From a virus: a stretch of 28,443 bases of DNA. Below are positions 7,643 through 28,443 of this stretch, piece by piece. The translations under genes were made by a program, and so were the position numbers. The stretch lies in IMG/VR virus record IMGVR_UViG_3300029825_000558, one strand, 5' to 3'. Each line of letters starts with the position of its first letter. Within the stretch, counting starts at the first letter, position 1. Below the pieces are notes generated by a model. The model did not search any database and was not told the DNA's origin. It saw nothing but the letters and a program-made list of their open reading frames with translations.

Positions 7643-7909
7643 CTAGATGTTGCTATACTCTTTTTCAACTCCGGCCCCCCCACCCGTGAACGTAAAACCG
7701 AATACGCTCGCGCTCTGTGTTGGAAAACGGGAGCCTGTGGACTCGCTCCCGGTGGGGAGGGGGATGAAGCAGGAAGCCCCCTGCGTAAGCGGGGGGTAGT
7801 TCACCTCCACGAAATAATCGCAACCCAGACAATCGTCGTAATCCACCAGTCCATCAATGGGACAGTAGATATGATGCTCAAACTCGATCTCTCGTGTCAT
7901 CCTCTTCAC
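7643..7909 (-). CDS. Hypothetical Cys-containing protein, 88 aa
   Basis: Track ORF; YCP...DCLGCDY pattern; GAGG RBS. Confidence 0.45.
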   Translation of the reverse strand: MKRMTREIEFEHHIYCPIDGLVDYDDCLGCDYFVEVNYPPLTQGASCFIPLPTGSESTGSRFPTQSASVFGFTFTGGGAGVEKEYSNI

Positions 7910-7965
7910 ATCTCCTTTGCTGATTCTTCTGTTCTCGCATGTGGACAGCCATCCAAGTGGTCAGG

Positions 7966-8103
7966 TCATCCAGCCGCCCCAAGGAACTCCCCCGCCAGCC
8001 GGCCGGTGAGGGGTGCGGAGGGGTTGCCGGCGACGGTCTGCACCGCCCCCACCACGGCCCCAGCGATGAGGGCCAGGGTGATTAGGCTTTGGTTATGTTT
8101 CAT
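7966..8103 (-). CDS. Small hydrophobic ORF, 45 aa (MKHNQSLITLALIAGAVVG...)
   Basis: Hand translation; GGAGG RBS 5 nt upstream. Confidence 0.4.
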   Translation of the reverse strand: MKHNQSLITLALIAGAVVGAVQTVAGNPSAPLTGRLAGEFLGAAG

Positions 8104-8306
8104 GCAACCTCCGGTAAGGGGTTATCGGATCGTTCTCAGTCATACTCTTTAACTCACCACCCTGATTGCCTAAACTCTGCAGTAAAGGCACTCTAACAGG
8201 TAATACGCTCGAAAGGTATATTAATGTTTGGCACTTAATTAGTTGTATGGAGCGCGAAGCGGCAACGTCTTGATGGGTATGGATAGGACCAGGAGTTAAA
8301 ATCTAA

Positions 8307-8870
8307 ATGAGACCACGAGGCAAAGCCGCCCCCTACCGAACCGGCGAATACGCCCTGACACGGAAAGAGTATGAGAAAGCCCTGGCCGCCTGCCAGAACC
8401 TAGAGGACCGGGTGCTGATCATGGTCGGCTGCACCCTCGGCCTGCGGCGCTCTGATATCGTGCGGCTCGAGTGGGCGAACATTGATATCCGGGATCCAGA
8501 GAGTGCGACCGTCACCTACCAAGAGAAGAAGAAGGGCAACCGGCTACGGACGGTCCCAATCGGGCCGAAGCTCGCACAAGAACTTATGATCCTGCGGAAC
8601 ACTCAACCCCGGACACAGAAGACAGTGTTCTCGTTCAAAGACCGGCAGGCATACAACCGGTTCCAAAAGGTCTGCTTGATCGCCGGTATCGAGGAGAGGC
8701 CGTTCCACGCGCTCCGGGCGACGGCGATCAAGTTCATGCAGGCGGCGGGGTGGCGGCCGGAGGAAGTCGCGGAGATCATCGGGGATACGCTCCGGACGAT
8801 CCAGGAGCATTACACTACGCCGAGCCGGTCGGAGCTGGCGGAGGCTGCAAAGGAGAAGGAGGTTGTTTGA
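8307..8870 (+). CDS. int: Tyrosine recombinase/integrase, catalytic domain only (187 aa)
   Basis: LGLRRSDI (R), KKKG (K), FHALR (HxxR), IGDT, EHYT (Tyr); TATA-like GGTATATTAA upstream. Confidence 0.92.
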   Translation: MRPRGKAAPYRTGEYALTRKEYEKALAACQNLEDRVLIMVGCTLGLRRSDIVRLEWANIDIRDPESATVTYQEKKKGNRLRTVPIGPKLAQELMILRNTQPRTQKTVFSFKDRQAYNRFQKVCLIAGIEERPFHALRATAIKFMQAAGWRPEEVAEIIGDTLRTIQEHYTTPSRSELAEAAKEKEVV

Positions 8871-10103: not shown

Positions 10104-10286
10104 TCACCTCTCTACCAGCCCTTCCGAGTAACCTCTTGCCAGCAGGTCGGCGCGGATATCGCCCCCGGAGTGATCGGGGCAATAGGGGTAGATATCCCCA
10201 TCGGCACACTCGACATATTGCCAACCCACCACAGGCTCTTCTTCGGACTCGCCCTCCTTCCCACACAGCACGCATTTATGGATCAT
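10104..10286 (-). CDS. Zn-finger micro-protein, 60 aa (CxxC...C...YCxxH), ends LVER
   Basis: Track ORF flanked by junction motifs. Confidence 0.75.
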   Translation of the reverse strand: MIHKCVLCGKEGESEEEPVVGWQYVECADGDIYPYCPDHSGGDIRADLLARGYSEGLVER

Positions 10287-10481
10287 CTATTGCCCCTCTA
10301 CCAGCAGATCGATCTGCTGCATAAAATATTCTTGATCGGGATCTTCTCGACGCAGCCGGGCCATGAACGCCCCATACCACACCCCAAATAGGTCGGGGCT
10401 CCCTAGAGCGGTTTCAACCTCCAGCAGGCCGAGGTAGTATGTGGTGCAATCCCCCTGCACGGATCTTAACCATTCAAGCAC
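10287..10481 (-). CDS. Hypothetical protein, 64 aa, ends LVEGQ
   Basis: Track ORF flanked by junction motifs. Confidence 0.7.
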   Translation of the reverse strand: MLEWLRSVQGDCTTYYLGLLEVETALGSPDLFGVWYGAFMARLRREDPDQEYFMQQIDLLVEGQ

Positions 10482-10487
10482 GATCTT

Positions 10488-10685
10488 TCACCTCTCTACC
10501 AGGGCATCAACCGCCCTGCGGTTACATTCGACACATAGCCCCTTTCCGACCTCAATGAAAGTCATCGATGGGAACAAGTGTGCGGGGTAGACCTCGCGGG
10601 CCGCTGCCAGGCTGTCAGCCAGCAGATACCAACCGCCCCGGATGATCTCTTCATTCGCGGATTCAACGCGGAATACTAGCTTCAT
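10488..10685 (-). CDS. Hypothetical protein, 65 aa (CxxC), ends LVER
   Basis: Track ORF flanked by junction motifs. Confidence 0.7.
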   Translation of the reverse strand: MKLVFRVESANEEIIRGGWYLLADSLAAAREVYPAHLFPSMTFIEVGKGLCVECNRRAVDALVER

Positions 10686-10696
10686 CCTTCAGTCCT

Positions 10697-10969
10697 CTAC
10701 CACGGCTTGTAACGGTAGTTGATGTGATAGGACCAATGATACTCACAGTACCTATACCCACAATCAGGACACTCTCTTACTTCCCCGCTGCACGTGGTAG
10801 CACTCATCTCACACATACCCCGGTCTCGTCGCTCCTGCCTTAGTTCTGAATTAGACCCAGGGGGACGGCAGGGGTGATTCACCCAGGCAGCACGATTATA
10901 GGGATGCAGTCGCGTCTTACCATCTGTTCCGACGATGGGAGGATATTTTTCTACCATGCTTTTACTCAT
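10697..10969 (-). CDS. Zn-finger protein, 90 aa (C...C...CPDC...YCEYH)
   Basis: Track ORF; AN1-like Cys/His spacing. Confidence 0.7.
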   Translation of the reverse strand: MSKSMVEKYPPIVGTDGKTRLHPYNRAAWVNHPCRPPGSNSELRQERRDRGMCEMSATTCSGEVRECPDCGYRYCEYHWSYHINYRYKPW

Positions 10970-11996
10970 CTACCATCTTTTCAACTTCTGCGATTGCCTG
11001 GAAGATAGGATAGACCTGTTGAGGTACTACCGCGTTTCCGAGACATCGCAGCCTGTCCACCCGATGGGAAATCCCATCAGCCACTCCACAAACTCCGGAT
11101 TCAAGTACTGGGGATGGCATTTCCCTTTCTCCCCACGATACGGGTTGTGCGAACCGCCCCATTCGTCTATCCTGCCGTTCTGGTTCCCGGAGACCGAAGT
11201 GGGGGTGTAGAACATCCCGCGAATCAGTGCCCCTGGCACCGTGTCCCGGTGCAGTTGCGATGGGGGAAGCGTCGAGTTCTTCGCATCCTGGGCGCAGGGG
11301 GTCGGGACCATCTGCAGGACCGCCGTCTGTAGGTTCAGCCCTCCGGTGCCGTGCTCCCCCGCTCCGGTGTGACAATTCGCGTGCGGAGTGGGATACATCC
11401 TCGCGGCGCCCACGAGGGTCGGTACTGGTTTGGATGGGTCGCCCCTCGAGTACTGATAGGCGTGCCCCTGGGCATCTGCCCGCGTCATCGTGGGCCACAA
11501 TGAATACCCGATCTCGCATGTGCGGGGCACCGACCCCCGCAGCCGGAAGAAGGAACGCCCGGCAGGAGTAACCCGCACACTCCAGGTCAGTAAGCACGTC
11601 ATCGAGTGCCAGACTGACGAGGCCAGCAACATTCTCTCCAATGACCCAAGTGGGCCGGAGTTCCTGCACCACTCTAAGCATTTCCGGCCAGAGGTGACGG
11701 TCATCCTCCGTGCCTCGGCGCTTCCCGGCACAGGAGAACGGCTGGCAGGGGAAGCCTCCGGACAGTACGGTCGGTGCATGTTCGATGCCGGCTTCCCGGA
11801 CAGTGTGAATTGTGACATCCTTGATATCCTCCCATCGCGGCACATCGGGCCAGTGCTTTTTTAGGATCTTGTTCGCGTAGTCGCTCTTTTCGACCTGACC
11901 GACCGTCTGAAACCCGACCCACTCGGCGGCCAGGTCGAGCCCGCCAATCCCGCTGAATAGCGAGAAGTGGGTGAGGGGTATGCTACCGCTTGTCAT
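10962..11996 (-). CDS. C5 cytosine DNA methyltransferase, alpha polypeptide (344 aa)
   Basis: Motif I FSLFSGIGG, IV GGFPCQPFS, VI ENV, VIII PHMRDRVF, X LGNAVVP; motif IX is absent from this frame. Confidence 0.93.
   Translation of the reverse strand: MTSGSIPLTHFSLFSGIGGLDLAAEWVGFQTVGQVEKSDYANKILKKHWPDVPRWEDIKDVTIHTVREAGIEHAPTVLSGGFPCQPFSCAGKRRGTEDDRHLWPEMLRVVQELRPTWVIGENVAGLVSLALDDVLTDLECAGYSCRAFLLPAAGVGAPHMRDRVFIVAHDDAGRCPGARLSVLEGRPIQTSTDPRGRREDVSHSARELSHRSGGARHRRAEPTDGGPADGPDPLRPGCEELDASPIATAPGHGARGTDSRDVLHPHFGLREPERQDRRMGRFAQPVSWGEREMPSPVLESGVCGVADGISHRVDRLRCLGNAVVPQQVYPIFQAIAEVEKMVDE
11027..11818 (-). CDS. C5 methyltransferase beta polypeptide nested in an alternative frame (~263 aa, start MSQFTLS)
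   Basis: Carries the motif IX-like LNPEFVEWLMGFPIGWT and repeated WPT/YPTP/VPTP units; GGGAGG RBS ~10 nt before the ATG. Confidence 0.75.
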   Translation of the reverse strand: MSQFTLSGKPASNMHRPYCPEASPASRSPVPGSAEARRMTVTSGRKCLEWCRNSGPLGSLERMLLASSVWHSMTCLLTWSVRVTPAGRSFFRLRGSVPRTCEIGYSLWPTMTRADAQGHAYQYSRGDPSKPVPTLVGAARMYPTPHANCHTGAGEHGTGGLNLQTAVLQMVPTPCAQDAKNSTLPPSQLHRDTVPGALIRGMFYTPTSVSGNQNGRIDEWGGSHNPYRGEKGKCHPQYLNPEFVEWLMGFPIGWTGCDVSETR

Positions 11997-12198
11997 TGCA
12001 GTCCTCTACCAGCCCAACCGCCTCTTTAAAGCGAATTTCGATCTCATCAACCAAGTCTTCCACTGTTTTAGTTAATTCTCCGTTCCTGAGAGCTTTTTCA
12101 AGCACCTCTAAGACCATTGTTCCGAAATCATCGTTCCATTCTTCTTCCGATGATTTTATATCCATATGGTTGTACCGTTCTATTACCGATTTCTTCAT
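11983..12198 (-). CDS. Hypothetical acidic protein, 71 aa
   Basis: Track ORF flanked by junction motifs. Confidence 0.7.
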   Translation of the reverse strand: MKKSVIERYNHMDIKSSEEEWNDDFGTMVLEVLEKALRNGELTKTVEDLVDEIEIRFKEAVGLVEDCNDKR

Positions 12199-12226
12199 TT
12201 TTCATTAACCTCCGTACTACTGTTTT

Positions 12227-12448
12227 CTACCATTTGCGCTCCCTTTGGCATTGTAGGGCGCGTTTGCCTTCGGCATATTCACACCATGACAAGTAAGACA
12301 CATACGCCAAAGATCCAAGGAATGATGTGGAGTCTTCCGGCTCCGGCTCTGGCCGGTGCGTGGGCTCTACGTGCGTCAACTCCAGAAGTTTCAGCATCAA
12401 TAGAATCCACATTACCAGTGCCGCTAGAATTACTACGATCTCCGTCAT
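12227..12448 (-). CDS. Small TM protein, 73 aa
   Basis: Track ORF; N-terminal hydrophobic helix; its stop is the TAG of the motif. Confidence 0.65.
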   Translation of the reverse strand: MTEIVVILAALVMWILLMLKLLELTHVEPTHRPEPEPEDSTSFLGSLAYVSYLSWCEYAEGKRALQCQRERKW

Positions 12449-12449
12449 G

Positions 12450-12623
12450 CTATCTCTCCTCTACCACGAGCCTGCGGATCTCGTCCCGGGGCGACAGGAT
12501 CGTCGGGTCCGGGCAGTGCTCGTCGCAGGCGTACAGCAGACCATACTCGGCTCCAGCCCGGCGGATCTCAATCTCCCAGGTTGCCGGGCGGTTGCAGCCT
12601 CTGGTTGTGCAGTTCGGCATCAT
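12450..12623 (-). CDS. Zn-finger micro-protein, 57 aa (MMPNCTTRGC...YACDEHC...LVVEER)
   Basis: Hand translation between two junction motifs. Confidence 0.7.
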   Translation of the reverse strand: MMPNCTTRGCNRPATWEIEIRRAGAEYGLLYACDEHCPDPTILSPRDEIRRLVVEER

Positions 12624-12626
12624 GGT

Positions 12627-12761
12627 TCACTCCTCTACCACGAAGTGTTTACACTGCTCACGCCGTATCGGGGGCTCGTTGTAGGGCCAACAGACCCTCA
12701 ATGACGCTCCGGGGCGGAAGCATTTTTTGCCATCTGTGCTCTGATATTTGCACCTCGCCAT
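12627..12761 (-). CDS. Cys-rich micro-protein, 44 aa (MARCKYQ...CKHFVVEE)
   Basis: Hand translation between two junction motifs; four Cys. Confidence 0.65.
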   Translation of the reverse strand: MARCKYQSTDGKKCFRPGASLRVCWPYNEPPIRREQCKHFVVEE

Positions 12762-12763
12762 CT

Positions 12764-13093
12764 CTATCTCTCCTCTACCATCTTGCCCGCGTCCCCGTCT
12801 CGGATCTCAGCGAGGTTGCCAGCGGCGATCTCGTTGAGGTCGAGGATGCAGGCCGGGATCGTGGGGTCGCCTAGACGCCAGTATTCATGCATCGATGCTG
12901 ATATCTCCCGAAGGATAGCCTCTTCGAGATCACAGGCCTCTTCTTCGGAGCGGCACTCGGCCAGGGGCCAAATGTACGTGTGGATGACTGCATAGACATT
13001 GCCTCGGGTGGTGTGCTCTAGACTGCCGAACGCAGAGATCGGAAACGTCGCTACTTTGCCCCCGGAACGGGCACGGATAAAAATTGGTTCCAT
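12764..13093 (-). CDS. Hypothetical protein, 109 aa, ends MVEER
   Basis: Track ORF flanked by junction motifs. Confidence 0.75.
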   Translation of the reverse strand: MEPIFIRARSGGKVATFPISAFGSLEHTTRGNVYAVIHTYIWPLAECRSEEEACDLEEAILREISASMHEYWRLGDPTIPACILDLNEIAAGNLAEIRDGDAGKMVEER

Positions 13094-13096
13094 CTT

Positions 13097-13252
13097 CTAC
13101 TCCTCTACCACTTCAGGCAGCGGGTCTAGCCGCACCACCTTGATACGTAGACCTTGCCACGCTAGCGGGAGGTTGGCGCGGGCGCTATACTGGTTCCCAG
13201 AGCGCACGACCATTTCAATAGCCTCGTACCCCTCAATCTCATAACGATCCAT
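13097..13252 (-). CDS. DUF2080-like (AbrB-type beta) small archaeal protein, 51 aa
   Basis: Hand translation MDRYEIEGYEAIEMVVRSGNQYSARANLPLAWQGLRIKVVRLDPLPEVVEE matches the (F/Y)EIEGYE...LPxxWxGxxhKhVRL pattern. Confidence 0.7.
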   Translation of the reverse strand: MDRYEIEGYEAIEMVVRSGNQYSARANLPLAWQGLRIKVVRLDPLPEVVEE

Positions 13253-13269
13253 TCAAACCACCACGGGAA

Positions 13270-13545
13270 TTATTTGGCCGAGGCTATGACCTTCATAAGC
13301 CTCGTGTATCCTGCCTTGATCTGACGGTATGTGTTTTCTGGGAGTTGGTCCTTCTTGAGTGCAATTGCTTCGATAATCTTGTCTCTCTGCCTCTCGTCAA
13401 AACAGATGCGGTACTTTTTTGAGTAGACTGCTCCCTTCTTACCCTGGCCGCGACCACTTGCTGCCACATCAAACGCTCTGACTTCAACGCCCTCGATACC
13501 TTTGCAGATATCGCCCGCCTCGATGATGGTTGTCTGTACTTCCAT
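13270..13545 (-). CDS. Hypothetical protein, 91 aa
   Basis: Track ORF; GGAGA RBS; downstream of an internal promoter. Confidence 0.75.
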   Translation of the reverse strand: MEVQTTIIEAGDICKGIEGVEVRAFDVAASGRGQGKKGAVYSKKYRICFDERQRDKIIEAIALKKDQLPENTYRQIKAGYTRLMKVIASAK

Positions 13546-13562
13546 TTGTCTCGTCTCCTTGT

Positions 13563-13605
13563 TACAATACCTATATTATATCTATTAGTATAAATAGGTA
13601 TTGTA
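13563..13605 (-). promoter_or_regulatory. Internal promoter with a perfect 12-bp inverted repeat (TACAATACCTAT-N19-ATAGGTATTGTA) enclosing the TATA box TTTATA
   Basis: Direct reading; AT-rich gap in the array. Confidence 0.75.
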
Positions 13606-13638
13606 TGAGGTAAGGATCTATCTATCGATCCTCTACCA

Positions 13639-13827
13639 TCACTCGTCCTCTAATGGGCACCGTGGATCAATCTCATCCAGGCGGTCTTTGTGCAGTACAA
13701 GCCTTTTATCTTGCCCCAAACACCAAACCTCGGTGTAGTGCTCTCCCTCTTCCCCTAACCCAGGCAAGTACTCTTCAGATGCCCAAGGACATTCCCGGCA
13801 AGAGGGAACTTTTATTATTTTCACCAT
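13639..13827 (-). CDS. Cys-containing micro-protein, 62 aa (CRECPW...WC...CPL)
   Basis: Track ORF flanked by motifs. Confidence 0.7.
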   Translation of the reverse strand: MVKIIKVPSCRECPWASEEYLPGLGEEGEHYTEVWCLGQDKRLVLHKDRLDEIDPRCPLEDE

Positions 13828-14022
13828 TCACCTCTCTATCAACTGTTTTTCTTCGATATCCTTCCGTACAGAAGCCCCTTCCAAAAGGACAAGTGCCCCA
13901 ATAATGGCGAAAAGACTCAGTATCCCCAAGTCCTGATCCAATGTAGGCGCGGCGATCAGACAACCGAGCCCTGTGATACCTAGTGCCGTACCTAAGATCA
14001 AATCAAATTTCCATTTAGACAT
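13828..14022 (-). CDS. Two-TM micro-protein, 64 aa, ends LIER
   Basis: Track ORF. Confidence 0.7.
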   Translation of the reverse strand: MSKWKFDLILGTALGITGLGCLIAAPTLDQDLGILSLFAIIGALVLLEGASVRKDIEEKQLIER

Positions 14023-14350
14023 CGTTTTCCTCCGTACTGCTGTTTTCTACCATCTGAAAAGGGTAATTTCTCGCCCTGTTGAGTATGGCAAGTACCTGAT
14101 CAGGAGTCTGGTAACCTGCTACGGCGTCGTCTTCGTCGTTGGTGAGAGCCTTTGTGATTGTTTCTTGGTTGGCGTCCCACGCCATTACTTCAGCCGTCTT
14201 GCTCGCCCAATATCTCCGATCCTGGTTGCTAGTTAATATCTCGTCATAGTTGTCTGTGTGCGTCCCTGGATGGAACTGTACGGAGACAGTCACGCCGTTT
14301 TCAAAGGTGATGTGGAAACCACCTTTCCCAGTTACTTTGAATCCTGTCAT
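14015..14350 (-). CDS. Hypothetical protein, 111 aa (GFHITFENGVTVSVQF...TAEV)
   Basis: Track ORF after a junction motif. Confidence 0.75.
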   Translation of the reverse strand: MTGFKVTGKGGFHITFENGVTVSVQFHPGTHTDNYDEILTSNQDRRYWASKTAEVMAWDANQETITKALTNDEDDAVAGYQTPDQVLAILNRARNYPFQMVENSSTEENDV

Positions 14351-14351
14351 A

Positions 14352-14666
14352 TCACTCCTCTACCAAGCTAGGAATCTCGCCATATTCGCGTGCCTTGGCC
14401 TTCACTCAGTTGAATACCACCTCAGGGTCAACAACTGTCTTGGTGGGGTCGGCCAAGTCTGCGATAATTGCGCTGTAGGTGCGCCGGATGAGGGCCGGTA
14501 ACGATGGGCTCTCGGTAAATGGTCCGAAATCAACTAGGTTATAGCAAGCGCCCAGAACATCCTCTGCAACAACCCGAGTGGGTTCATTCCAGGTACCATC
14601 TATGCAAATTCTGACGACCTGAGAACTGTTCACGCATAATCCCGGTTCAACATGCAACAATTTCAT
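14352..14666 (-). CDS. 86-aa ORF (14406..14666) followed in frame, after one TGA, by 17 codons ending LVEE; possibly a truncated 104-codon gene
   Basis: Reads ...EVVFN*VKAKAREYGEIPSLVEE*. Confidence 0.6.
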
Positions 14667-14680
14667 AATCTACTCCTTTT

Positions 14681-14773
14681 CTACCATTCATTCCACCCGG
14701 GGTCTTGGAGTTCGACAAGTCTTGAGGTCGGCGTTGCGTCATCGCCTTCGCCCAAAAATACCTGATACCACAT
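14681..14773 (-). CDS. 30-aa micro-ORF copy A (MWYQVFLGEGDDATPTSRLVELQDPGWNEW)
   Basis: Hand translation; within a 113-bp unit duplicated at 15444-15556. Confidence 0.6.
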   Translation of the reverse strand: MWYQVFLGEGDDATPTSRLVELQDPGWNEW

Positions 14774-14793
14774 CGTCTATCTCTCCTCTACCA

Positions 14794-14937
14794 TCACGCC
14801 TTTTTTGCCTTCGACCAGACAGCAACCGGGAATGGCATCCCAGGGGTGTCTCGATATACACATTCGGGCGGTACCGCTCGACGAGATGTTTCTACCCGGC
14901 AGTTGTAATTGCACTCTTTGCATTCGTATACAGGCAT
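14794..14937 (-). CDS. Zn-ribbon micro-protein, 47 aa (MPVYECKECNYNC...)
   Basis: Hand translation between junction motifs. Confidence 0.65.
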   Translation of the reverse strand: MPVYECKECNYNCRVETSRRAVPPECVYRDTPGMPFPVAVWSKAKKA

Positions 14938-14940
14938 GTT

Positions 14941-15234
14941 TCACCCCTCTACCCGCCCTAGCGCTGCCTGCTCCTCGTCGCGGTTCCGCCACGTGAGGAA
15001 CATCGTCATTTGCTCGTCGCTCAGGTCTGCGACGAGGAGTACCGCGGGCCCCGGGTATCCATCGCCCGGGCACTCTGCCGTGGGGTAGATCCAGAGGCTC
15101 CCGCCGCAAATCGGGCAGTCATCCGGGCCTGCCGGGTAGCAGGAGCACGGGGCCGCGACCCCGCAGAGGTTCGGCTCCTGGTGCTCACATTTTTCGTAGT
15201 GGATGCAATCCTCGAAACAAGTCATTCCTTTCAC
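14941..15234 (-). CDS. Cys-rich protein, 97 aa, paralog A
   Basis: Track ORF; 73/97 aa identical to 15743..16036 by manual comparison. Confidence 0.8.
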   Translation of the reverse strand: MKGMTCFEDCIHYEKCEHQEPNLCGVAAPCSCYPAGPDDCPICGGSLWIYPTAECPGDGYPGPAVLLVADLSDEQMTMFLTWRNRDEEQAALGRVEG

Positions 15235-15238
15235 TCCT

Positions 15239-15415
15239 CTACCAGGAAGCCCCGACCCTCCGGTCTTCCGCGTCCTGATCGTCCGGACTCAGGCTGTCGT
15301 ACATCGCTTCTGCCTTTGCCTCGCATTCCGAGCACATCGCCCAATCCTCTTCCCAGAGGGCGGCGGTTTCGACAGTCAATTCCTTTCCACAGTTGCATTT
15401 CCTTACTTCTTCCAT
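15239..15415 (-). CDS. Zn-finger micro-protein, 58 aa (MEEVRKCNCG...MCSECE...)
   Basis: Hand translation; GGAGG RBS; its stop is the TAG of the motif. Confidence 0.7.
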   Translation of the reverse strand: MEEVRKCNCGKELTVETAALWEEDWAMCSECEAKAEAMYDSLSPDDQDAEDRRVGASW

Positions 15416-15443
15416 GATTCTCAGTCCTCCATGTTACGATTCT

Positions 15444-15536
15444 CTACCACTCATTCCACCCGGGGTCTTGGAGTTCGACAAGTCTTGAGGTCGGCGTTGC
15501 GTCATCGCCTTCGCCCAAAAATACCTGATACCACAT
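15444..15536 (-). CDS. 30-aa micro-ORF copy B (identical protein to 14681..14773)
   Basis: Hand translation. Confidence 0.6.
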   Translation of the reverse strand: MWYQVFLGEGDDATPTSRLVELQDPGWNEW

Positions 15537-15550
15537 CGTCTATCTCTCCT

Positions 15551-15739
15551 CTACCAGGGACATTCCCCGCTTTTAATCCAGCCATGTACCCAGGTCTGCC
15601 GGTAATCGCACTCAGGGCAGATCAATCCATCATTTGTTGCTATGAGGTCTCCGTGACCGTTCCCGCAGGTTAGCGGGTGGAATTTGCCGGATTGCTGATA
15701 CCTGTTGATATTTTCAACTTCCTCGTCGGTGAATATCAT
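15551..15739 (-). CDS. Zn-finger micro-protein, 62 aa (HPLTCGNGH...CPEC)
   Basis: Track ORF flanked by motifs. Confidence 0.75.
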   Translation of the reverse strand: MIFTDEEVENINRYQQSGKFHPLTCGNGHGDLIATNDGLICPECDYRQTWVHGWIKSGECPW

Positions 15740-15742
15740 CTT

Positions 15743-16036
15743 TCACTCCTCTACCAACTCAAGCGCCGCCATCTCTTCGTCGCGGTCCCGCCACATGAGG
15801 AGCATCGTCATCTGCTCATCGCTCAGGTCCACGGGCCGCAGGACGGCCGGACCCGGGTATCCATCGCCCGGGCACTCTGCCGTGGGGTAGATCCAGCATT
15901 TCCCGCCGCATTCCGGGCAGTCGTCAGAACAGAAGGGGAAGTGGCAGCACGGGGCCGCAACCCCACAGAGGTTCGGATTCAGGTGCTCACATTTTTCGTA
16001 GTAGATACAATCCTTGAAACAAGTCATTTCTTTCAC
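15743..16036 (-). CDS. Cys-rich protein, 97 aa, paralog B, ends LVEE
   Basis: Track ORF. Confidence 0.8.
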   Translation of the reverse strand: MKEMTCFKDCIYYEKCEHLNPNLCGVAAPCCHFPFCSDDCPECGGKCWIYPTAECPGDGYPGPAVLRPVDLSDEQMTMLLMWRDRDEEMAALELVEE

Positions 16037-16284
16037 TCCTCTACCATCTTAGGGGCGTTTGGTTTGCATTCTCCCCAGCGGATTTCTGCCATCTCTTCCT
16101 GCCATTGGTTGAGCTTGGCCTGGGAGACATACCCCTCTCCTTTGCAGAGCGAGCACGGGACAGACTCCCCGCATCCGTCGCACCCTAGATTCTCAGAACG
16201 CCTCTTGCATCCACCCAGATCGGTGGTTTGGCTCTTACAGAGCCTTCCATCTCCCCAACAAAGGGGACATTCAGCACTGTTCAT
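16033..16284 (-). CDS. DnaJ-like CxxCxGxG Zn-finger protein, 83 aa, ends MVEE
   Basis: CPLCWGDG, CDGC, CSLCKGEG. Confidence 0.75.
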   Translation of the reverse strand: MNSAECPLCWGDGRLCKSQTTDLGGCKRRSENLGCDGCGESVPCSLCKGEGYVSQAKLNQWQEEMAEIRWGECKPNAPKMVEE

Positions 16285-16334
16285 CTTCTACTCCTCTACC
16301 AAACTCGATACTCTCAATTCTTTCAGATTCGTCC

Positions 16335-17099
16335 TCAGCCCGACCCACCTCGCGTGATCTCGCACTTGTCGAGGTACACCGTGATATGACAGGCCGGGCA
16401 GGTCGTCCGATATTGCGACCCTCCGCGATACGTCCAGATGTGGCCGCACTTGTGGCACCGGAGCGGGATCCCCTTCATACGGCGGGCCTGCTCCTCACAG
16501 GCCGCCCTCACCTCCTCGACGCTCTCCACCTCGTCGGCCCCGGGACCGATCAGGGCCATCCCGCGCTTGTCAACGGCCCAAACCGGATAGGCCGTATCGA
16601 CCCCCTCCGGGATCGGGGCGGACGGGAGCGAGTCCATCTCCACGTAGTCCTCCGCTCTCCGGTCGGCCCGGTCGGCGGTCTCGTCCAGCCGCGTGAGCAA
16701 CTCCACCAACCGGGATACATCTTCCGTATCCCAGGCTCGGATCTCCCGCGCGATTATCCGAGCGGCCCGGTCGAGGACCTCGAGGTACGCGGCCCGGTCG
16801 ATCCCCTCCAAGGCGAAGAGGGCCTCGTCGTAGTCGTCATCTATCCAGATCGTCGTCGCGGCCGAAAGGGCGGGGAGGTGCTCGGTAGGCTCTCCATCTG
16901 TCCCGATCGCGTACTCTGCGACCTCGCGGAGCGGGACCAGCCGCAGCTCCTGCACCAGCACCCCGCGCTCGCTCTCCGTGAGCGAGTCAAGGACCTCGAT
17001 CGCGTCCTCATCCAGCGCGAGGTACTCCCGCGCTTCGTCGTAGTCGAGCCGGACCCTGATCGCCGGCTCGCCGTACCAGGTTGTTGTTTCGTGTTTCAT
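16335..17099 (-). CDS. Acidic protein with C-terminal Zn ribbon (~254 aa, start MKHETTTW)
   Basis: C-terminal CHKCGHIW...CPAC; GAGGGG RBS; stop codon lies inside the 29-bp repeat. Confidence 0.8.
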   Translation of the reverse strand: MKHETTTWYGEPAIRVRLDYDEAREYLALDEDAIEVLDSLTESERGVLVQELRLVPLREVAEYAIGTDGEPTEHLPALSAATTIWIDDDYDEALFALEGIDRAAYLEVLDRAARIIAREIRAWDTEDVSRLVELLTRLDETADRADRRAEDYVEMDSLPSAPIPEGVDTAYPVWAVDKRGMALIGPGADEVESVEEVRAACEEQARRMKGIPLRCHKCGHIWTYRGGSQYRTTCPACHITVYLDKCEITRGGSG

Positions 17100-17329
17100 T
17101 CTTCCCCTCCGATCTCTCTGAGTGACTCCCTGCAGGCCCAGCAATCCTCGCCGGGATCCATTATCCTCCCGCTGTCGTCGCCGGTCCCGCACATCCATCC
17201 CTCGGGGACCTTCCGCCACATGCGCGGCCGCCCGCAGCACGGACACTCAGGACCATCCTCATATCCTACCACCTTCGTATACAGGATCGTAACATGATCC
17301 TTTGTGATTTCCATTGGCTTATGATCCAT
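17096..17329 (-). CDS. Zn-finger micro-protein, 77 aa
   Basis: CPCC...WMCG...CWAC; GAGGAG RBS. Confidence 0.7.
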   Translation of the reverse strand: MDHKPMEITKDHVTILYTKVVGYEDGPECPCCGRPRMWRKVPEGWMCGTGDDSGRIMDPGEDCWACRESLREIGGEE

Positions 17330-17370
17330 TCTTCAATCTCCTCTCCCGCCCACGGGCGGGGAAATGCGGT

Positions 17371-17951
17371 CCCGGGCCTCGAACCCGGGCGGGGCCTGGT
17401 TACCCTCGCCGCTCAGTCAGTCCACTCGATCTCGATCGTCTCTACAGGCCCGTCCTCATCCTCCATTATCACCTCTTTCAGATACCGGAGTTCCTCCCGC
17501 CAAACCGATTCATAGAGATCTGCGTACTCGTCGATCAGCGCATGCTCCTCGGAGGTCAACTCCGCGAAATCCACCGCACGGACCCGCCCCTCCTTAATAC
17601 GCTCCTCCCGGGCATCATTCCAATATTGGGTTGTATCGTCGTCGAGGTCGGTCTCCACGAACCCCTCGGGGTCGTATATCTCCGGCCCAATATAGGTGGT
17701 TCCGCGACCGACCGCGCTGATCTTCGCGGTGCCGTCCGGCCAGACAAAGACGCCCATCCGGTCGCCCCCGGTCGTAGTGGTCTCATTGTTGTGCAGGATC
17801 GCGTCTGCGATCTCATTTCTAGACAGTTTGATTCTCATTCTCGTTCACCTCATTTTTGTTCTAGTTTTGCCCTTTCGGGCGATTCCTAACGGATTTTCTG
17901 AAAGCGGCCCCGGGCCTCGAACCCGGGCGGGGCCTGGTTACCCTCGCCGCT
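17371..17951 (-). repeat. 43-bp GC-rich direct repeat (17371-17413, 17909-17951) with a T-arm-like hairpin, flanking one gene
   Basis: Minus strand AGCGGCGAGGGTAACCAGGCCCCGCCCGGGTTCGAGGCCCGGG in both copies. Confidence 0.9.
17413..17838 (-). CDS. Acidic hypothetical protein, 141 aa
   Basis: Track ORF; GAGGTGA RBS. Confidence 0.8.
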   Translation of the reverse strand: MRIKLSRNEIADAILHNNETTTTGGDRMGVFVWPDGTAKISAVGRGTTYIGPEIYDPEGFVETDLDDDTTQYWNDAREERIKEGRVRAVDFAELTSEEHALIDEYADLYESVWREELRYLKEVIMEDEDGPVETIEIEWTD

Positions 17952-17958
17952 GTTGATC

Positions 17959-18093
17959 TCAGAGGGAGATCCCAAAAACCCTGTACCCGTACTCCCTCAG
18001 TACATCCCCCCACCGGATTTTTGGCTCCTCGTCCTCGTCCGGGATCAGTCCCCGGAGCATCTCAACCGCTTGGGTCATGGTCATTTCAGTCAT
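17959..18093 (-). CDS. Micro-protein, 44 aa (MTEMTMTQAVEMLRG...)
   Basis: Hand translation; GGAGGT RBS. Confidence 0.6.
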   Translation of the reverse strand: MTEMTMTQAVEMLRGLIPDEDEEPKIRWGDVLREYGYRVFGISL

Positions 18094-18116
18094 GATCGTA
18101 CCTCCACTAATGCTAC

Positions 18117-18422
18117 TCAGATCGAAATGATCCGGGCTACTCGCACACTCTCAGCGCTCGCATAGACTGACTGGCCTGTGCGGAGGGCCTCCAGGAGGTC
18201 CTGCCCGTCGTAACTCTCGTTATCGATCGAGAGGTCGTCCCGGGAGACCCTCACCTCCACCACCGCGAGATCCTCCTCATCGTCGCCCTGGTATGCGTAC
18301 TCCTGTGCGACCGCTCTTCGGGGGGTCAGGTAGACCCGCCCGGGGAAAAACCCGGCCTGCTGGATCCCCTCTGCGTTCCGCAGAGAGGTCCCGTGGTAGA
18401 GTGTAATCGAGTTCATAATCAT
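18117..18422 (-). CDS. ADP-ribosyltransferase-fold-like protein, 101 aa
   Basis: LYHGT...GF...VYLT...AQEYA...VVEVRV, typical of the H-Y-class ART/Tpt1-like NAD-binding core. Confidence 0.55.
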   Translation of the reverse strand: MIMNSITLYHGTSLRNAEGIQQAGFFPGRVYLTPRRAVAQEYAYQGDDEEDLAVVEVRVSRDDLSIDNESYDGQDLLEALRTGQSVYASAESVRVARIISI

Positions 18423-18425
18423 TCC

Positions 18426-18467
18426 CTACTACATACTATGTATGCATAGTATAAATAAGTTTCTATT
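18426..18467 (-). promoter_or_regulatory. Promoter/operator copy 1: 27-bp CTACTACATACTATGTATGCATAGTAT containing the palindrome ATACTATG-N4-CATAGTAT
   Basis: Identical 27 bp at 18896-18922; overlaps the TATA box TTTATA on the minus strand. Confidence 0.8.
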
Positions 18468-18885
18468 AGTCCTCTCCCGGGAGCGTGATCGTGATGCACG
18501 GCTGGCCGCTCGGGTCCGCTGCACCGATCCGCATCTCCAGGGTGATCGTCCTGCGCTGCGCTGCTTTTTGGATGTAGATCACGCGGAACCTCAGCCGGTC
18601 CGCGTCCGGCCTGCACCGCGCAGCCATTCGGGCCACCCATAGAGTATCCCACAGTCGCCCCTCTACACTCTGACCGTACGGGACGGATCGCGGGTCAGGG
18701 GTGATGTACTCGTCCCAGAGTGTGCGGGTCACCGAGACCGGGATCGTAAACCCAGCCTCACGGGCCGTCTCGGATACGTCCACCTGATACCCGTCCCGGA
18801 TCGCGTCCTCGCGGGTGTATGCGTAGATCAGATCCCCCTCTCCGAAAAACCGGGTCTCAAGGGTTGTCTGCACTGTTTCGGTCAT
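18466..18885 (-). CDS. DUF6573-like protein, 139 aa
   Basis: LIYAYTREDAIRDG..VDVSETAREAGF.IPVSVTRTLWD...GRLWDTLW pattern. Confidence 0.65.
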   Translation of the reverse strand: MTETVQTTLETRFFGEGDLIYAYTREDAIRDGYQVDVSETAREAGFTIPVSVTRTLWDEYITPDPRSVPYGQSVEGRLWDTLWVARMAARCRPDADRLRFRVIYIQKAAQRRTITLEMRIGAADPSGQPCITITLPGED

Positions 18886-18895
18886 GATCTTACCT

Positions 18896-18988
18896 CTACT
18901 ACATACTATGTATGCATAGTATTTATTACTTTCTATTTAGCTCAGATAAGGAACCATCTATATGATTCTGGAACCATCTATATGATTC
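18896..18988 (-). promoter_or_regulatory. Promoter/operator copy 2, plus an upstream 19-bp tandem repeat GGAACCATCTATATGATTC (18950-18968, 18970-18988)
   Basis: Direct reading; TAAATA TATA-like element. Confidence 0.75.
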
Positions 18989-19028
18989 GAGAAGGAGGGG
19001 GCGGGCCGTGGCCCGCCAGGGGGAGGGG

Positions 19029-19238
19029 TTAGACGCGGCGACCGCGGAGATCGGATCGGTCTTTCCGGGACTCGTAATATACCCGGCCGCTCGCACTCCG
19101 CCGCTTGCCCGGCTGCATCGCCTTGCGCGCAGAGTCGCGCTTTGCATGCGACGTCCCGGTCTGGCGGGTGGACGCCTTCAGGACCTGGCGCCCGAACTTC
19201 TTTGACCGGAGAGTCTTCTGAGAGCTCTTTTTGGCCAT
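19029..19238 (-). CDS. Highly basic small protein, ~69 aa (…PGKRRSASGRVYYESRKDRSD…)
   Basis: Track ORF; TATATA box ~25 nt upstream just inside the insert boundary. Confidence 0.7.
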   Translation of the reverse strand: MAKKSSQKTLRSKKFGRQVLKASTRQTGTSHAKRDSARKAMQPGKRRSASGRVYYESRKDRSDLRGRRV

Positions 19239-19248
19239 ACTCAATAGT

Positions 19249-19515
19249 CTATACTCCGGAATATATAGTTTTTGATGCTGCTTTCTGTTCTTTCAGATTC
19301 GTCCTCAGCCCGACCCCGGAGAGCAACAGGAACACTCCAAACTGCGCTCCCAGGTAGAGCGAGCCGGTCAACGCTGCGAACGCAACCCAGGCGCTATTTC
19401 CGGCGATCCAGCACCCGAACCCGGCGGCCCGCTGTCGGGGAGTGGGGCCGGCCACCAGGACCGCCCCGGCGATACTGCCGAGTAAGCCAATGGTTTGCAG
19501 GGCGTTATTCAGCAT
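19249..19515 (-). CDS. Three-TM membrane protein, 88 aa; C-terminus replaced by the 3-kb insertion
   Basis: The original tail LRVSSLVEE is found in frame beyond the other repeat copy at 16288-16317. Confidence 0.75.
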   Translation of the reverse strand: MLNNALQTIGLLGSIAGAVLVAGPTPRQRAAGFGCWIAGNSAWVAFAALTGSLYLGAQFGVFLLLSGVGLRTNLKEQKAASKTIYSGV

Positions 19516-19867
19516 TGTGCCCCCCGAGCGAGATCGCCATGTTGTACCGATCCCGCTCCTCCTCGGTCAGGTTCTCGGGCCGCTCCCTGTCGCGCTTGAA
19601 CACCACACGGTCCTGAACGGCCATACGGAGTTTTGCGCTCCTGATGTCGTAAATCTCCCCCACGATATCATAGATCTCCTGGAGTGTCCGGTAGTGGTCC
19701 CGGTCGCGGGAGTGGTCCAGGTCGATGCCTGCGACGGCTCGCCGGGCGGCCTGCCGGTACAGGATATAATAATCCTCCTCGATGGGGGAGAACCCGTCCT
19801 CGGCGCGTTCGCGTTCGAGGATGTTGCTGAGCCGGTCCCGGAGTTCTTCAAGTTCATCCCAGGTCAT
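19505..19867 (-). CDS. GINS (Gins51/Gins15) A-domain-like protein, ~120 aa (start MTWDELEELRD)
   Basis: NILERERAEDGFSPIEEDYY...EIYDIRSAKL...PENLTEEERDRY resembles the archaeal GINS helical domain (hLRxER...L..DFY...hYxxRxxKh...NLTxEEx.hY); no B-domain. Confidence 0.5.
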   Translation of the reverse strand: MTWDELEELRDRLSNILERERAEDGFSPIEEDYYILYRQAARRAVAGIDLDHSRDRDHYRTLQEIYDIVGEIYDIRSAKLRMAVQDRVVFKRDRERPENLTEEERDRYNMAISLGGHNAE

Positions 19868-28057: not shown

Positions 28058-28443
28058 TCACCAGAACAATGTTTTCTTGCGTTGTTTCCCGGAGAGCAAC
28101 TTCTCCAGCGCCCTCGCCCCGCGTCTGTCCGCAACCGGCTGCCGCCGCTGGTCGGCGACGAAGATGAGCTGCGGGCGGGAGGCCGCAACCCGGGCCGATT
28201 CCCTCACGACCCTCTCGGGCGGTCTGATGCCGAGGACCTCCCACGGGGTGGCAATCGGTGCGATGACTTCCCGCCGGCGATATTTATCATAGCGCCAGGG
28301 GCGGCGGCCGCGCCGGGTAGGGGTCAGGGACATGATGAGGGGCGGCGGTCGGCTCGGCGGTCTGCTTGGCGGTCTGCTTGGCGGTCTGCTTGGCGGTCTG
28401 CTTGGCGGTCTGCTTGGCGGTCTGCTTGGCGGTCTGCTTGGCG
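28058..28443 (-). CDS. 3' end of the giant protein that starts at 3029 (PSRP repeats, then Arg-rich tail ...KKTLFW)
   Basis: The repeat is read as PSRP in frame with track ORF 28058..28333, the same register as at the contig start. Confidence 0.8.
   Translation of the reverse strand, partial: PSRPPSRPPSRPPSRPPSRPPSRPPSRPPSRPPPLIMSLTPTRRGRRPWRYDKYRRREVIAPIATPWEVLGIRPPERVVRESARVAASRPQLIFVADQRRQPVADRRGARALEKLLSGKQRKKTLFW
28344..28443. repeat. 12-bp tandem repeat GGCGGTCTGCTT x8 plus a partial unit
   Basis: Direct reading. Confidence 0.98.

Follow-up and report, generated by a model that had tools for sequence, protein, structure and literature searches.

We found that a segment of about 3 kb, which an earlier note had taken for a foreign module nested in a membrane-protein gene (M), is the virus family's own segment, consisting of a gene for a basic protein (B), accessory genes that vary and have promoters of their own, and a gene for an acidic Zn-ribbon protein (Z). 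The joint that now places this segment within M was probably formed by short-homology illegitimate recombination between two related genomes. The window, that is the whole stretch of 28,443 nucleotides analysed, is a circular genome of ~28.4 kb, complete or nearly so, on the basis of an identical coding repeat at both of its ends, and the genome is that of a virus-like element whose methanogen host is probably Methanoculleus.

The segment is bounded by two identical copies (29/29 nt) of a 29-mer that reads TTCTTTCAGATTCGTCCTCAGCCCGACCC on the plus strand, with a spacing of 2,970 bp. By back-of-envelope arithmetic the chance of a 29-nt repeat in 28 kb is ~3e-9, which is negligible; the duplication noted before is confirmed. 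The features around the two copies are the following.

19249-19515, minus strand: M, gene for an 88-aa three-helix membrane protein, with a conserved core (residues 1-76) and a hybrid 12-aa tail
19288-19316, minus strand: 29-mer copy A, native in M, whose last conserved codons (VGLRTNLKE) it forms
19270-19287, minus strand: xKAVSK-class tail remnant (QKAASK), 18 nt, cut after SK at the left joint (TCAAAA, then ACTATAT)
16318-16346, minus strand: 29-mer copy B, part native Z sequence and part start of the orphan M fragment
16288-16317, minus strand: orphan LRVS-class tail, LRVSSLVEE and stop, 87-90% identical to the L022 and L027 tails
16033-16284, minus strand: first gene of the micro-gene array, 83 aa, downstream of the orphan tail

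M reads ...SGVGLRTNLKE and then QKAASKTIYSGV before its stop, while the same frame past the far 29-mer copy continues LRVSSLVEE and stops (16288-16317). The usual C-terminus of M is thus lost from the gene and survives as an orphan 2,970 bp downstream (VGLRTNLKE-LRVSSLVEE, 16288-16346), which contains TGGTAGAGGAG, the RBS of the first array gene. Uninterrupted M genes with a fused LRVS-type ending are present in three loci from digester metagenomes (L022, L027 and L018) and in many proteins, which bears out the proposal that the gene can be reconstructed as it was before its 3′ end was displaced. The fused ending, whose absence from block-free relatives would, by the earlier note, have refuted its reading, is carried by such relatives: ...LKELRVSNLVEER in L022, ...LRVSNLVEE in L027, and ...ELRVSNLVEE in P0013 and P0015. 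An identical core with diverged gene ends on either side is also the footprint of site-specific integration at a gene 3′ end.

Across 33 M homologs, conservation ends after ...GLRTNLK(E). At the nucleotide level it is ~95% up to the end of the 29-mer and ~55% beyond, and the drop falls exactly there. The tails beyond this point form two classes, xKAVSK (10 genes) and LRVS (11 genes), which share 27% identity, and gene-body similarity is tracked by neither. Both are native alleles in relatives, the xKAVSK tail being found in uninterrupted M genes of L003, L007 and L010. The first 21 nt of the window's tail match the intact L003 tail (QKAVSKLVEKR) at 17/21 positions and the LRVS tails at 29-43%. 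The two flanks therefore come from different alleles, xKAVSK upstream and LRVS in the orphan, which implies that two parental gene copies were involved and that the 29-mer is neither a target-site duplication nor an att core. Divergence of the tails after a duplication was rejected, both being standing alleles in relatives. An ancestral window layout, with the "empty" genes arising by deletion, was likewise rejected, because intact genes are widespread in both classes and the orphan end lacks its own start codon.

At the left joint, 18 nt beyond the 29-mer and at the TATA box of B, the overlap is 3-4 nt, AAA(A).

19261-19271, minus strand: TATA-type promoter element of the B unit, AAACTATATAT (conserved form AAACTATAT), 23 nt upstream of the B ATG
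19029-19238, minus strand: B, gene for a 69-aa highly basic protein, a conserved family gene by tblastn

The TATA-type element had been noted as the edge of the block, and we found it conserved upstream of B in five relatives (L003, L005, L023, L031 and L044). B itself has tblastn homologs with 62-90% identity in 7 loci (L003, L005, L016, L023, L024, L031 and L044), and in five relatives it sits 0-4 genes downstream of M. M-B fusions similar to that of the window, though non-identical, are found in L005 and L031; in L003, L023 and L044, 1-4 genes separate M from B, and in none of these three is the 29-mer directly before the B unit, where other genes are found instead.

At the right joint, the segment ends with Z.

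16335-17099, minus strand: Z, gene for a 254-aa acidic protein with a C-terminal Zn ribbon, a family core gene whose stop TGA lies in the 29-mer
16338-16346, minus strand: right-hand crossover zone, microhomology GGGTCGGGC, common to the native Z 3′ end (GGSG codons) and M

The Z stop (TGA, 16335-16337) falls within copy B, so that the final gene of the block ends inside the repeat as had been described. At its other end, Z and the 77-aa gene share an ATGA overlap. Z has 165 homologs at E <= 0.001, with 75-91% identity among the 120 matches listed, some of them on contigs of 26-30 kb, and the window has a single copy. Judged by these homologs, Z is a core gene of this ~26-30 kb virus family. 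Together with the conservation of B in 7 loci, this speaks against a nested foreign module. In more than 20 sequences the homologs natively end in ...RGGSG[E/A], and the window Z ends in ...RGGSG; native Z coding sequence makes up the first 9 nt of copy B. The overlap at this joint is 5-12 nt, GGGTC[GGGC], a length inferred from the native protein ends and L044 DNA rather than from the DNA of RGGSG-type homologs. In L044 and L011, the two loci in which the sequence past Z was read directly, a CxxC gene begins before Z has ended and the 29-mer does not follow; allowing up to 5 mismatches, the 29-mer is absent from the Z ends of L044, L011 and L030. The ends of the supposed module are thus not conserved, either after Z or before B. 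AF2 modelled Z poorly (pLDDT 60), VIA-align on this model returned nothing above a Z score of 4.4, and ESM Atlas offered no usable lead on Z or on the 141-aa protein described below; the poor model does not argue against a known fold for Z.

Accordingly, of the interpretation offered in the earlier note, short-homology recombination is retained, as it fits the right joint, and the nested circularisable satellite, or module integrated by Int in trans, is not. The first parent would have carried an M with an xKAVSK-class tail that had already become joined to the B unit, as in L005 and L031, and the second an LRVS-class M with the micro-gene array behind it, the arrangement of L022 and L027. The Z 3′ end of the first would have been joined to M of the second, 56 nt ahead of the M stop, by a crossover within the 5-12 nt microhomology; the mechanism would be illegitimate recombination at short homology, or else template switching in the course of co-infection or replication. 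The crossover would then set the upstream limit of the 29-nt identity, and the divergence of the tail alleles its downstream limit. The recombinant retains a full M, the whole accessory segment and the array, as well as a non-coding orphan gene end that still provides the RBS of the first array gene. We infer the co-residence of the two parents and the direction and timing of events from the allele classes and not from identified donors, since the closest empty site, that of L022, is only ~89% identical upstream.

We weighed this two-parent reading against site-specific integration, in which a recombinase-less cassette or satellite with the 29-mer as its att site would have been integrated in trans, by the tyrosine integrase encoded in the genome (8307-8870, plus strand) or by a host enzyme, and would have brought a replacement 3′ end. 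Islands and prophages that target tRNA or tmRNA genes insert into the gene 3′ end and supply a replacement end, and elements of this kind classically show repeats and a displaced gene end. By analogy, the perfect 29-nt direct repeats around the block, the displaced homologous end at its far side and the target gene, which stays open, would have the same classic look; the family-wide breakpoint coincides exactly with the 29-mer end, and an unoccupied target, ...LKELRVS(N)LVEE, is present in L022, L027 and L018. We nevertheless consider integration unlikely. Unlike such elements, the block holds core genes, including the sole copy of Z in the genome, and its ends are unconserved in relatives, as the missing 29-mers at the Z and B ends attest. 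Moreover, the upstream tail is a native allele and not module-borne, and one end of the repeat is the native sequence of the neighbouring gene. A second 29-mer copy was found at no other of the 54 loci compared, and a repeat search of the window revealed nothing resembling the 29-mer, partial copies included, near the integrase. As the earlier note had stated, the block carries no recombinase domain (Pfam, PHROGs, NCBIfam and PADLOC), and it is devoid of the motif named there: TGGTAGAG has 18 minus-strand copies in 10110-16301, against 0.55 expected for the window, and none from 16302 to 19287.

Quite unlikely in our view is that the 29-mer end is a dedicated recombination site and not just a boundary set by selection, a site at which a trans recombinase or a replication-linked mechanism of these viruses repeatedly swaps the sequence past ...GLRTNLKE and through which the B-to-Z segment can be excised and re-inserted. 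We regard as very unlikely an intramolecular translocation, in which the block of an L011-like genome would have been excised from beside the integrase and re-inserted, inverted, into the M 3′ end. In L011 (28.3 kb) the segment is indeed inverted and adjoins the integrase, and both L011 and L024 have block genes beyond the integrase, which indicates that the block has moved within the family; however, a single gene could not yield both tail classes, and adjacency or near-adjacency of M and B already exists in five relatives. It is highly improbable that the window is an assembly chimera of two co-existing strains joined at the conserved 29-mer, with no single molecule so built, for although strain heterogeneity starts exactly at the 29-mer and the contigs of three relatives (L014, L017 and L020) stop there, the Z-to-29-mer joint requires k-mers absent from both parents (the longest exact strings common to an L044-type Z end and M are ~6 nt), the final k of an assembly usually exceeds the 29 nt of the repeat, and the junction-dependent proteins of 88 and 254 aa are each found, exact, on 3 contigs from JGI and ENA. 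Scans of viral contig collections gave no matches for the 29-mer, the membrane protein, Z or the DUF6573 protein; the single match in the genome-contig scan was a mis-binned 4-kb contig (L001), and the MAG containing it has no Z homolog.

Between B and Z lie the following features.

18950-18989, no strand assigned: tandem 20-nt repeat, two copies, between B and the promoter that follows
18896-18937, minus strand: promoter/operator unit copy 1, 42 nt, with the 16-nt palindrome ACTATGCATACATAGT, found by repeat search
18466-18885, minus strand: gene for a DUF6573 protein (Pfam PF20213), 139 aa, in a variable accessory slot
18426-18467, minus strand: promoter/operator unit copy 2, 42 nt, palindrome hairpin z-score -3.4
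18117-18422, minus strand: accessory gene for a predicted minimal ADP-ribosyltransferase-fold protein, ART-PolyVal-like, 101 aa, by profile and model
17959-18093, minus strand: accessory 44-aa ORF, from the ORF list
17901-17951, minus strand: 51-nt GC-rich hairpin element copy 2, just past the stop of the 44-aa ORF
17413-17838, minus strand: gene for a 141-aa acidic protein, flanked by both 51-nt elements
17363-17413, minus strand: 51-nt GC-rich hairpin element copy 1, beginning at the stop of the 141-aa gene
17096-17329, minus strand: accessory gene for a 77-aa Cys-rich protein, a clean gene-sized gap in L044

The middle slots differ among the window, L011, L044, L031, L005, L003 and L023, and the truly variable accessory genes, with promoters of their own, are confined to this middle part, the DUF6573 and minimal ADP-ribosyltransferase genes among them. 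The 101-aa protein has no counterpart and the 44-aa ORF no homolog in any of the 54 loci, the 141-aa protein has a homolog at 76% identity in L011, and the 51-nt element recurs at 96-98% identity in L011 and L044. The 42-nt unit also precedes unrelated genes in L011, L023, L031 and L044, and it is predicted to act as a promoter. The fold z-scores of the 51-nt elements are not significant. A reading of these repeats as tRNA 3′ halves or att remnants is unsupported, as ARAGORN and Rfam (at the gathering threshold, and at E <= 1 on the block) were negative. Integron-type cassettes do not fit either, as the 51-nt hairpins are near-identical and not cassette-specific, and there is no IntI-type gene and no Rfam match.

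The DUF6573 assignment made previously is upheld by a match to PF20213 that spans the full domain (profile positions 4-138 of 138) and scores 73.9 bits, where the cut-off is 27 (E 1.7e-20). Its tblastn matches are to 253 plasmids and 0 phages, and homologs lie on 159 conjugative plasmids amid runs of small unknown genes; the literature searched contains no mention of DUF6573. The 101-aa protein had been called ART-like. In Pfam it has only a weak PARP match (E 0.007) and falls below the PF18760 threshold, while 10 of 33 aligned homologs match PF18760 (best E 1e-4). In its family H10-G11 is invariant, a VYLT(P) motif is present, and a nearly invariant D67 is followed by the E of the consensus D-x-E. 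The family profile matches Tpt1/KptA structures (E 9e-5), and the AF2 model (pLDDT 83) has top Foldseek matches that are all of the ART fold (Tpt1, PARP14 and TreTu; best E 2e-3, TM 0.5-0.65). The H-Y-[D/E] core and these profile and model matches support an ART fold. PADLOC gave no matches for the block genes, and PHROGs and NCBIfam only weak, uninformative ones. The accessory genes may have an early or anti-defence role; neither the DUF6573 nor the ART-PolyVal family is known to have such activity against defences.

Novel joints formed by illegitimate recombination have reportedly been described in mosaic tailed phages (lambdoid phages and mycobacteriophages) by Hendrix, Juhala, Pedulla and colleagues. 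The present joints resemble them in the abrupt change of relatedness at gene ends or close by, the few bases of homology, the survival of recombinants that keep gene function and the clustering of population breakpoints at gene boundaries. They differ in their setting, a methanogenic archaeon with a virus that is not of the head-tailed kind, and in that a 56-nt partial gene duplication remains here in two allelic versions, which makes both parents' alleles readable from one genome. Morons are autonomously transcribed accessory genes located between phage core genes. The DUF6573 and ART genes are like them, each having its own conserved promoter/operator unit, with hairpin elements after genes, and the block's accessory genes show presence/absence and slot-wise replacement among relatives; unlike in morons, the promoters are of predicted archaeal TATA type and one 42-nt unit is re-used before unrelated genes. 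The 101-aa protein shares its core with ART-PolyVal proteins and itself has homologs embedded in polyvalent proteins of 2-3 kaa, and the DUF6573 gene recalls accessory or leading-region genes of conjugative plasmids, but both are found here in an archaeal virus, the former under the PF18760 threshold.

Taken together, these results identify the locus as a probable case of viral mosaicism, ordinary though clearly documented, and not as a new kind of mobile element. Methanogen viruses are poorly known, and gene exchange between their genomes is hardly documented. Because a single genome preserves both parental gene-end alleles, the crossover can be narrowed down to about a dozen bases. The virus family has a fixed scaffold (M, B, Z and re-used promoter and hairpin units) around slots that swap accessory genes, including a putative minimal ADP-ribosyltransferase and a plasmid-type DUF6573 protein. 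Annotation is helped, as core and accessory genes can now be distinguished, and the accessory genes of the locus are candidate host-interaction genes. If the 29-mer end were truly a dedicated site, it would amount to a recombinase-less module-shuffling system in archaeal viruses.

An exact 29-mer occurs twice in the window, with a spacing of 2,970 bp (reading of 15900-19700 together with a repeat search), in a region where the ORF map places every gene on the minus strand. The features concerned are as follows:

19249-19515, minus strand: membrane-protein gene, 88 aa, with three hydrophobic stretches
19288-19316: 29-mer, copy A
19029-19238, minus strand: basic-protein gene, 69 aa
16335-17099, minus strand: Zn-ribbon protein gene, 254 aa, terminating at a TGA within copy B
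16318-16346: 29-mer, copy B
16288-16317, minus strand: orphan tail LRVSSLVEE*, in the same frame as the membrane-protein gene

The membrane protein reads ...LLLSGVGLRTNLKE through copy A and then QKAASKTIYSGV*, and its frame is taken up again beyond copy B by the orphan tail, which runs out in the TGGTAGAGGAG junction motif ahead of the micro-gene array, whose first gene has its ATG at 16284. The motif TGGTAGAG has 18 minus-strand copies in 10110-16301 (0.55 expected for the window), and a motif count over the window found no minus-strand copy inside the block between the two 29-mers. The 29-mers, the gene ends, the stop within the repeat, the absence of the motif and the other sequence facts listed in the earlier note all hold on re-reading.

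Next we examined the membrane-protein gene in relatives. The alignment of its 33 homologs is conserved as far as G-L-R-T-N-L-K and variable beyond, the commonest endings being ...ELRVS(N/K)LVEE and ...E(R/Q)KAVSKLVEE. A metagenome scan for related loci returned 53, and at one of them, L022, the gene passes directly into a tail that matches window 16346-16291 at 98% identity across 56 nt; the uninterrupted genes of L027 and L018 are similar to that of L022. The gene rebuilt in the earlier note as it stood before the rearrangement is thus sound, since relatives without the block keep the fused LRVSSLVEE-type end. The contigs of three relatives (L014, L017 and L020) stop no more than a few bases from where the 29-mer ends, which suggests branching of the assembly graph, and so strain heterogeneity, exactly at that point.

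Gene body and tail were both readable at 25 loci. Of their tails, 10 are of the xKAVSK class, 11 of the LRVS class, two are short LVEx tails and two are others, and the class does not track the similarity of the gene bodies. The two tails of the window belong to different classes. Upstream, the first 21 nt past the 29-mer, starting CAGAAAGCAGCATCAAAA, are identical at 17 of 21 positions to the intact QKAVSKLVEKR tail of L003, and merely 29-43% identical to LRVS tails, while the orphan tail matches the LRVS tails of L022 and L027 at 87-90% identity; between the two window tails, identity is 27%. Nucleotide conservation in relatives stays at ~95% along the gene body up to the last base of the 29-mer and falls to ~55% at the base that follows. 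On these comparisons, the downstream edge of the 29-nt identity is the point at which two standing alleles diverge. Tails of different class call for two parental copies of the gene, one of each class, and neither a target-site duplication nor divergence after duplication explains them.

On the left side, the xKAVSK tail runs 18 nt past the 29-mer and then joins the conserved promoter region of the basic gene at TCAAAA/ACTATAT. This promoter region (…CATAAACTATATG…AGAGAATAGACTATTGGATATGG) also precedes the basic gene in L003, L023 and L044, and there between one and four other genes, with a …TGGTAGAAAACTGTAAGGTGGACTGA gene end, come before it; the AAACTATAT element is a putative promoter element. 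Two other loci, L005 and L031, carry fusions of the membrane-protein gene to the basic gene that resemble the one in the window and are cut four codons later (after …SKL). The number of genes between the two forms a series of 4, 3, 1 and 0, which shows that a basic gene just downstream of the membrane-protein gene is a normal, variable layout of the family rather than the border of something inserted at the 29-mer. The intervening genes of L003 include slot-specific cargo (L003:1875-2645), a 256-aa gene with an SGGKDS PP-loop motif, which we take to resemble the PAPS-reductase/DndC family.

On the right side, the Zn-ribbon protein has 165 homologs at E <= 0.001, proteins P0102-P0220 among them; identity is 75-91% for the 120 listed, and several, including P0118, P0132, P0140 and P0210, sit on 26-30 kb contigs. 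The gene ranks among the most widely sampled of the virus family, ahead of that for the membrane protein, and the window has a single copy of it; we therefore regard it as a core gene of the family. A few copies carry the JGI label 'Zn-ribbon and HTH regulator'. Beyond …DKC(E/K)I its C-terminus is hypervariable, with more than 20 homologs, P0122 and P0128 for instance, ending in …RGGSG(E/A), and the window copy ends in …TRGGSG, that is, the native ending less one residue. The codons GGT GGG TCG GGC overlap, out of frame, the C GGG GTC GGG CTG AGG of the membrane-protein gene, and for this reason the first 9 nt of copy B (GGGTCGGGC, 16338-16346) are probably native Zn-ribbon gene sequence and the microhomology that holds the crossover. 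We read the DNA at the end of the gene in two relatives, and in neither is it followed by the 29-mer: L044 has CGGGGTGAGTCTGAGGCATGA, L011 has unrelated sequence, and each time the gene runs into, or directly up to, a CxxC gene. The joint of the Zn-ribbon gene to the 29-mer is found only in the window and is located inside a coding end, which argues for a trace of illegitimate recombination and against a cassette boundary. An assembly chimera is unlikely, because this joint requires k-mers that would be absent from both parents and because both proteins that depend on the junction are on record on three contigs.

The gene content between the two copies also varies within the family. In L011 (L011:16384-20155 of 28,330 nt), a relative of almost the same size as the window, the DUF6573, 141-aa and Zn-ribbon genes lie beyond or adjoining the integrase and are inverted relative to the membrane-protein gene; in L024 and L016 the basic gene is placed after the array or the integrase, and the gene that follows the basic gene is a different one in each of L003, L005, L023, L031 and L044. 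These arrangements show that the segment moves within the family, although it does not do so as a single unit with constant ends. Its slots and repeated elements are as follows:

Slot from the DUF6573 gene to the 141-aa gene: ADP-ribosyltransferase-like (ART) gene and a 44-aa ORF in the window; an unrelated 'TENTEGY' 141-aa gene in L011
Slot from the 141-aa gene to the Zn-ribbon gene: 77-aa gene in the window; 179-aa gene in L011; empty in L044
18426-18467 and 18896-18937: 42-nt promoter-like units before the ART and the DUF6573 gene, respectively, with a perfect 16-nt palindrome ACTATGCATACATAGT
17363-17413 and 17901-17951, minus strand: two GC-rich elements of 51 nt, 96% alike, beginning at or just past a stop codon and flanking the 141-aa gene
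18950-18989: two tandem 20-nt repeats (GGAACCATCTATATGATTC[T/G]) between the basic gene and the DUF6573 promoter, a candidate binding site

The borders of the slots are repeatedly marked by the conserved 42-nt promoter/operator with its palindrome and by the 51-nt hairpin. The 42-nt unit also stands ahead of unrelated genes in L011, L023, L031 and L044, and the 152-aa gene of L023 matches DUF6573 over its first 20 residues only, a pattern suggestive of genes exchanged through homologous recombination at the 42-nt unit. The 51-nt elements of the window recur in L011 and L044 with 96-98% identity, compared with ~80% for the adjoining coding DNA. One copy folds, with weak z-scores, into a closing stem and two hairpins, the second of which is T-arm-like (CCCGGG-TTCGAGG-CCCGGG); no tRNA or Rfam match was found for these elements, which may be terminators, processing signals or recombination linkers. 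A paralogous, divergently transcribed 'TENTEGY' gene lies at the contig end of L011.

Regarding the cargo, a domain match confirmed the earlier DUF6573 call. Homologs were found on 253 plasmids, 159 of them conjugative, and none among phage records; on a Xanthomonas plasmid the gene sits within a run of small genes without known function. Members of the family to which the 101-aa ART-like protein (18117-18422, minus strand) belongs are free-standing proteins of ~100 aa and are also found as domains within proteins of 2-3 kaa, and the family alignment retains H-G-T, V-Y-L-T and a D-x-E motif. ART-PolyVal is matched by 10 of 33 family members, the family profile picks up Tpt1/KptA structures, and the top-of-list structural matches of the model (pLDDT 83) are exclusively ART folds. 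An early or anti-defence role of the cargo is a reasonable inference.

The 28.4-kb contig is probably a circular genome broken in a repeat, because a single long ORF with a 12-nt coding repeat, (AKQT)n on the minus strand, holds both of its ends (1-211 and 28295-28443) within that repeat; the copy number of the repeat is uncertain. Other genes of the window encode a tyrosine integrase (8307-8870, plus strand), a C5 methyltransferase, an AAA ATPase matching phrog_22963, large surface proteins and a CAP-domain protein. Within 7871-8870 (plus strand), the integrase ORF is just 187 aa and spans the catalytic domain, and the 450 nt upstream are 88-89% conserved with L011, yet are not in a continuous open frame with that ORF; the gene itself may be unusually short, or else split or frameshifted. 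The relatives come from anaerobic-digester and fermentation metagenomes, with contigs of up to 28-29 kb, and one member of the DUF6573 90%-identity cluster comes from a Methanoculleus horonobensis MAG.

Taken together, these results indicate that the reading of the block as a nested, circularisable satellite or module is largely not correct, and that the structure of the window is best explained by a single microhomology-mediated joint between two related genomes. Such a joint would have left the 56-nt orphan gene end, and the limits of the 29-mer would be set by the crossover on one side and by the divergence of the alleles on the other. In principle, the segment could be deleted through the 29-nt repeats, at the cost of a core gene of the virus.
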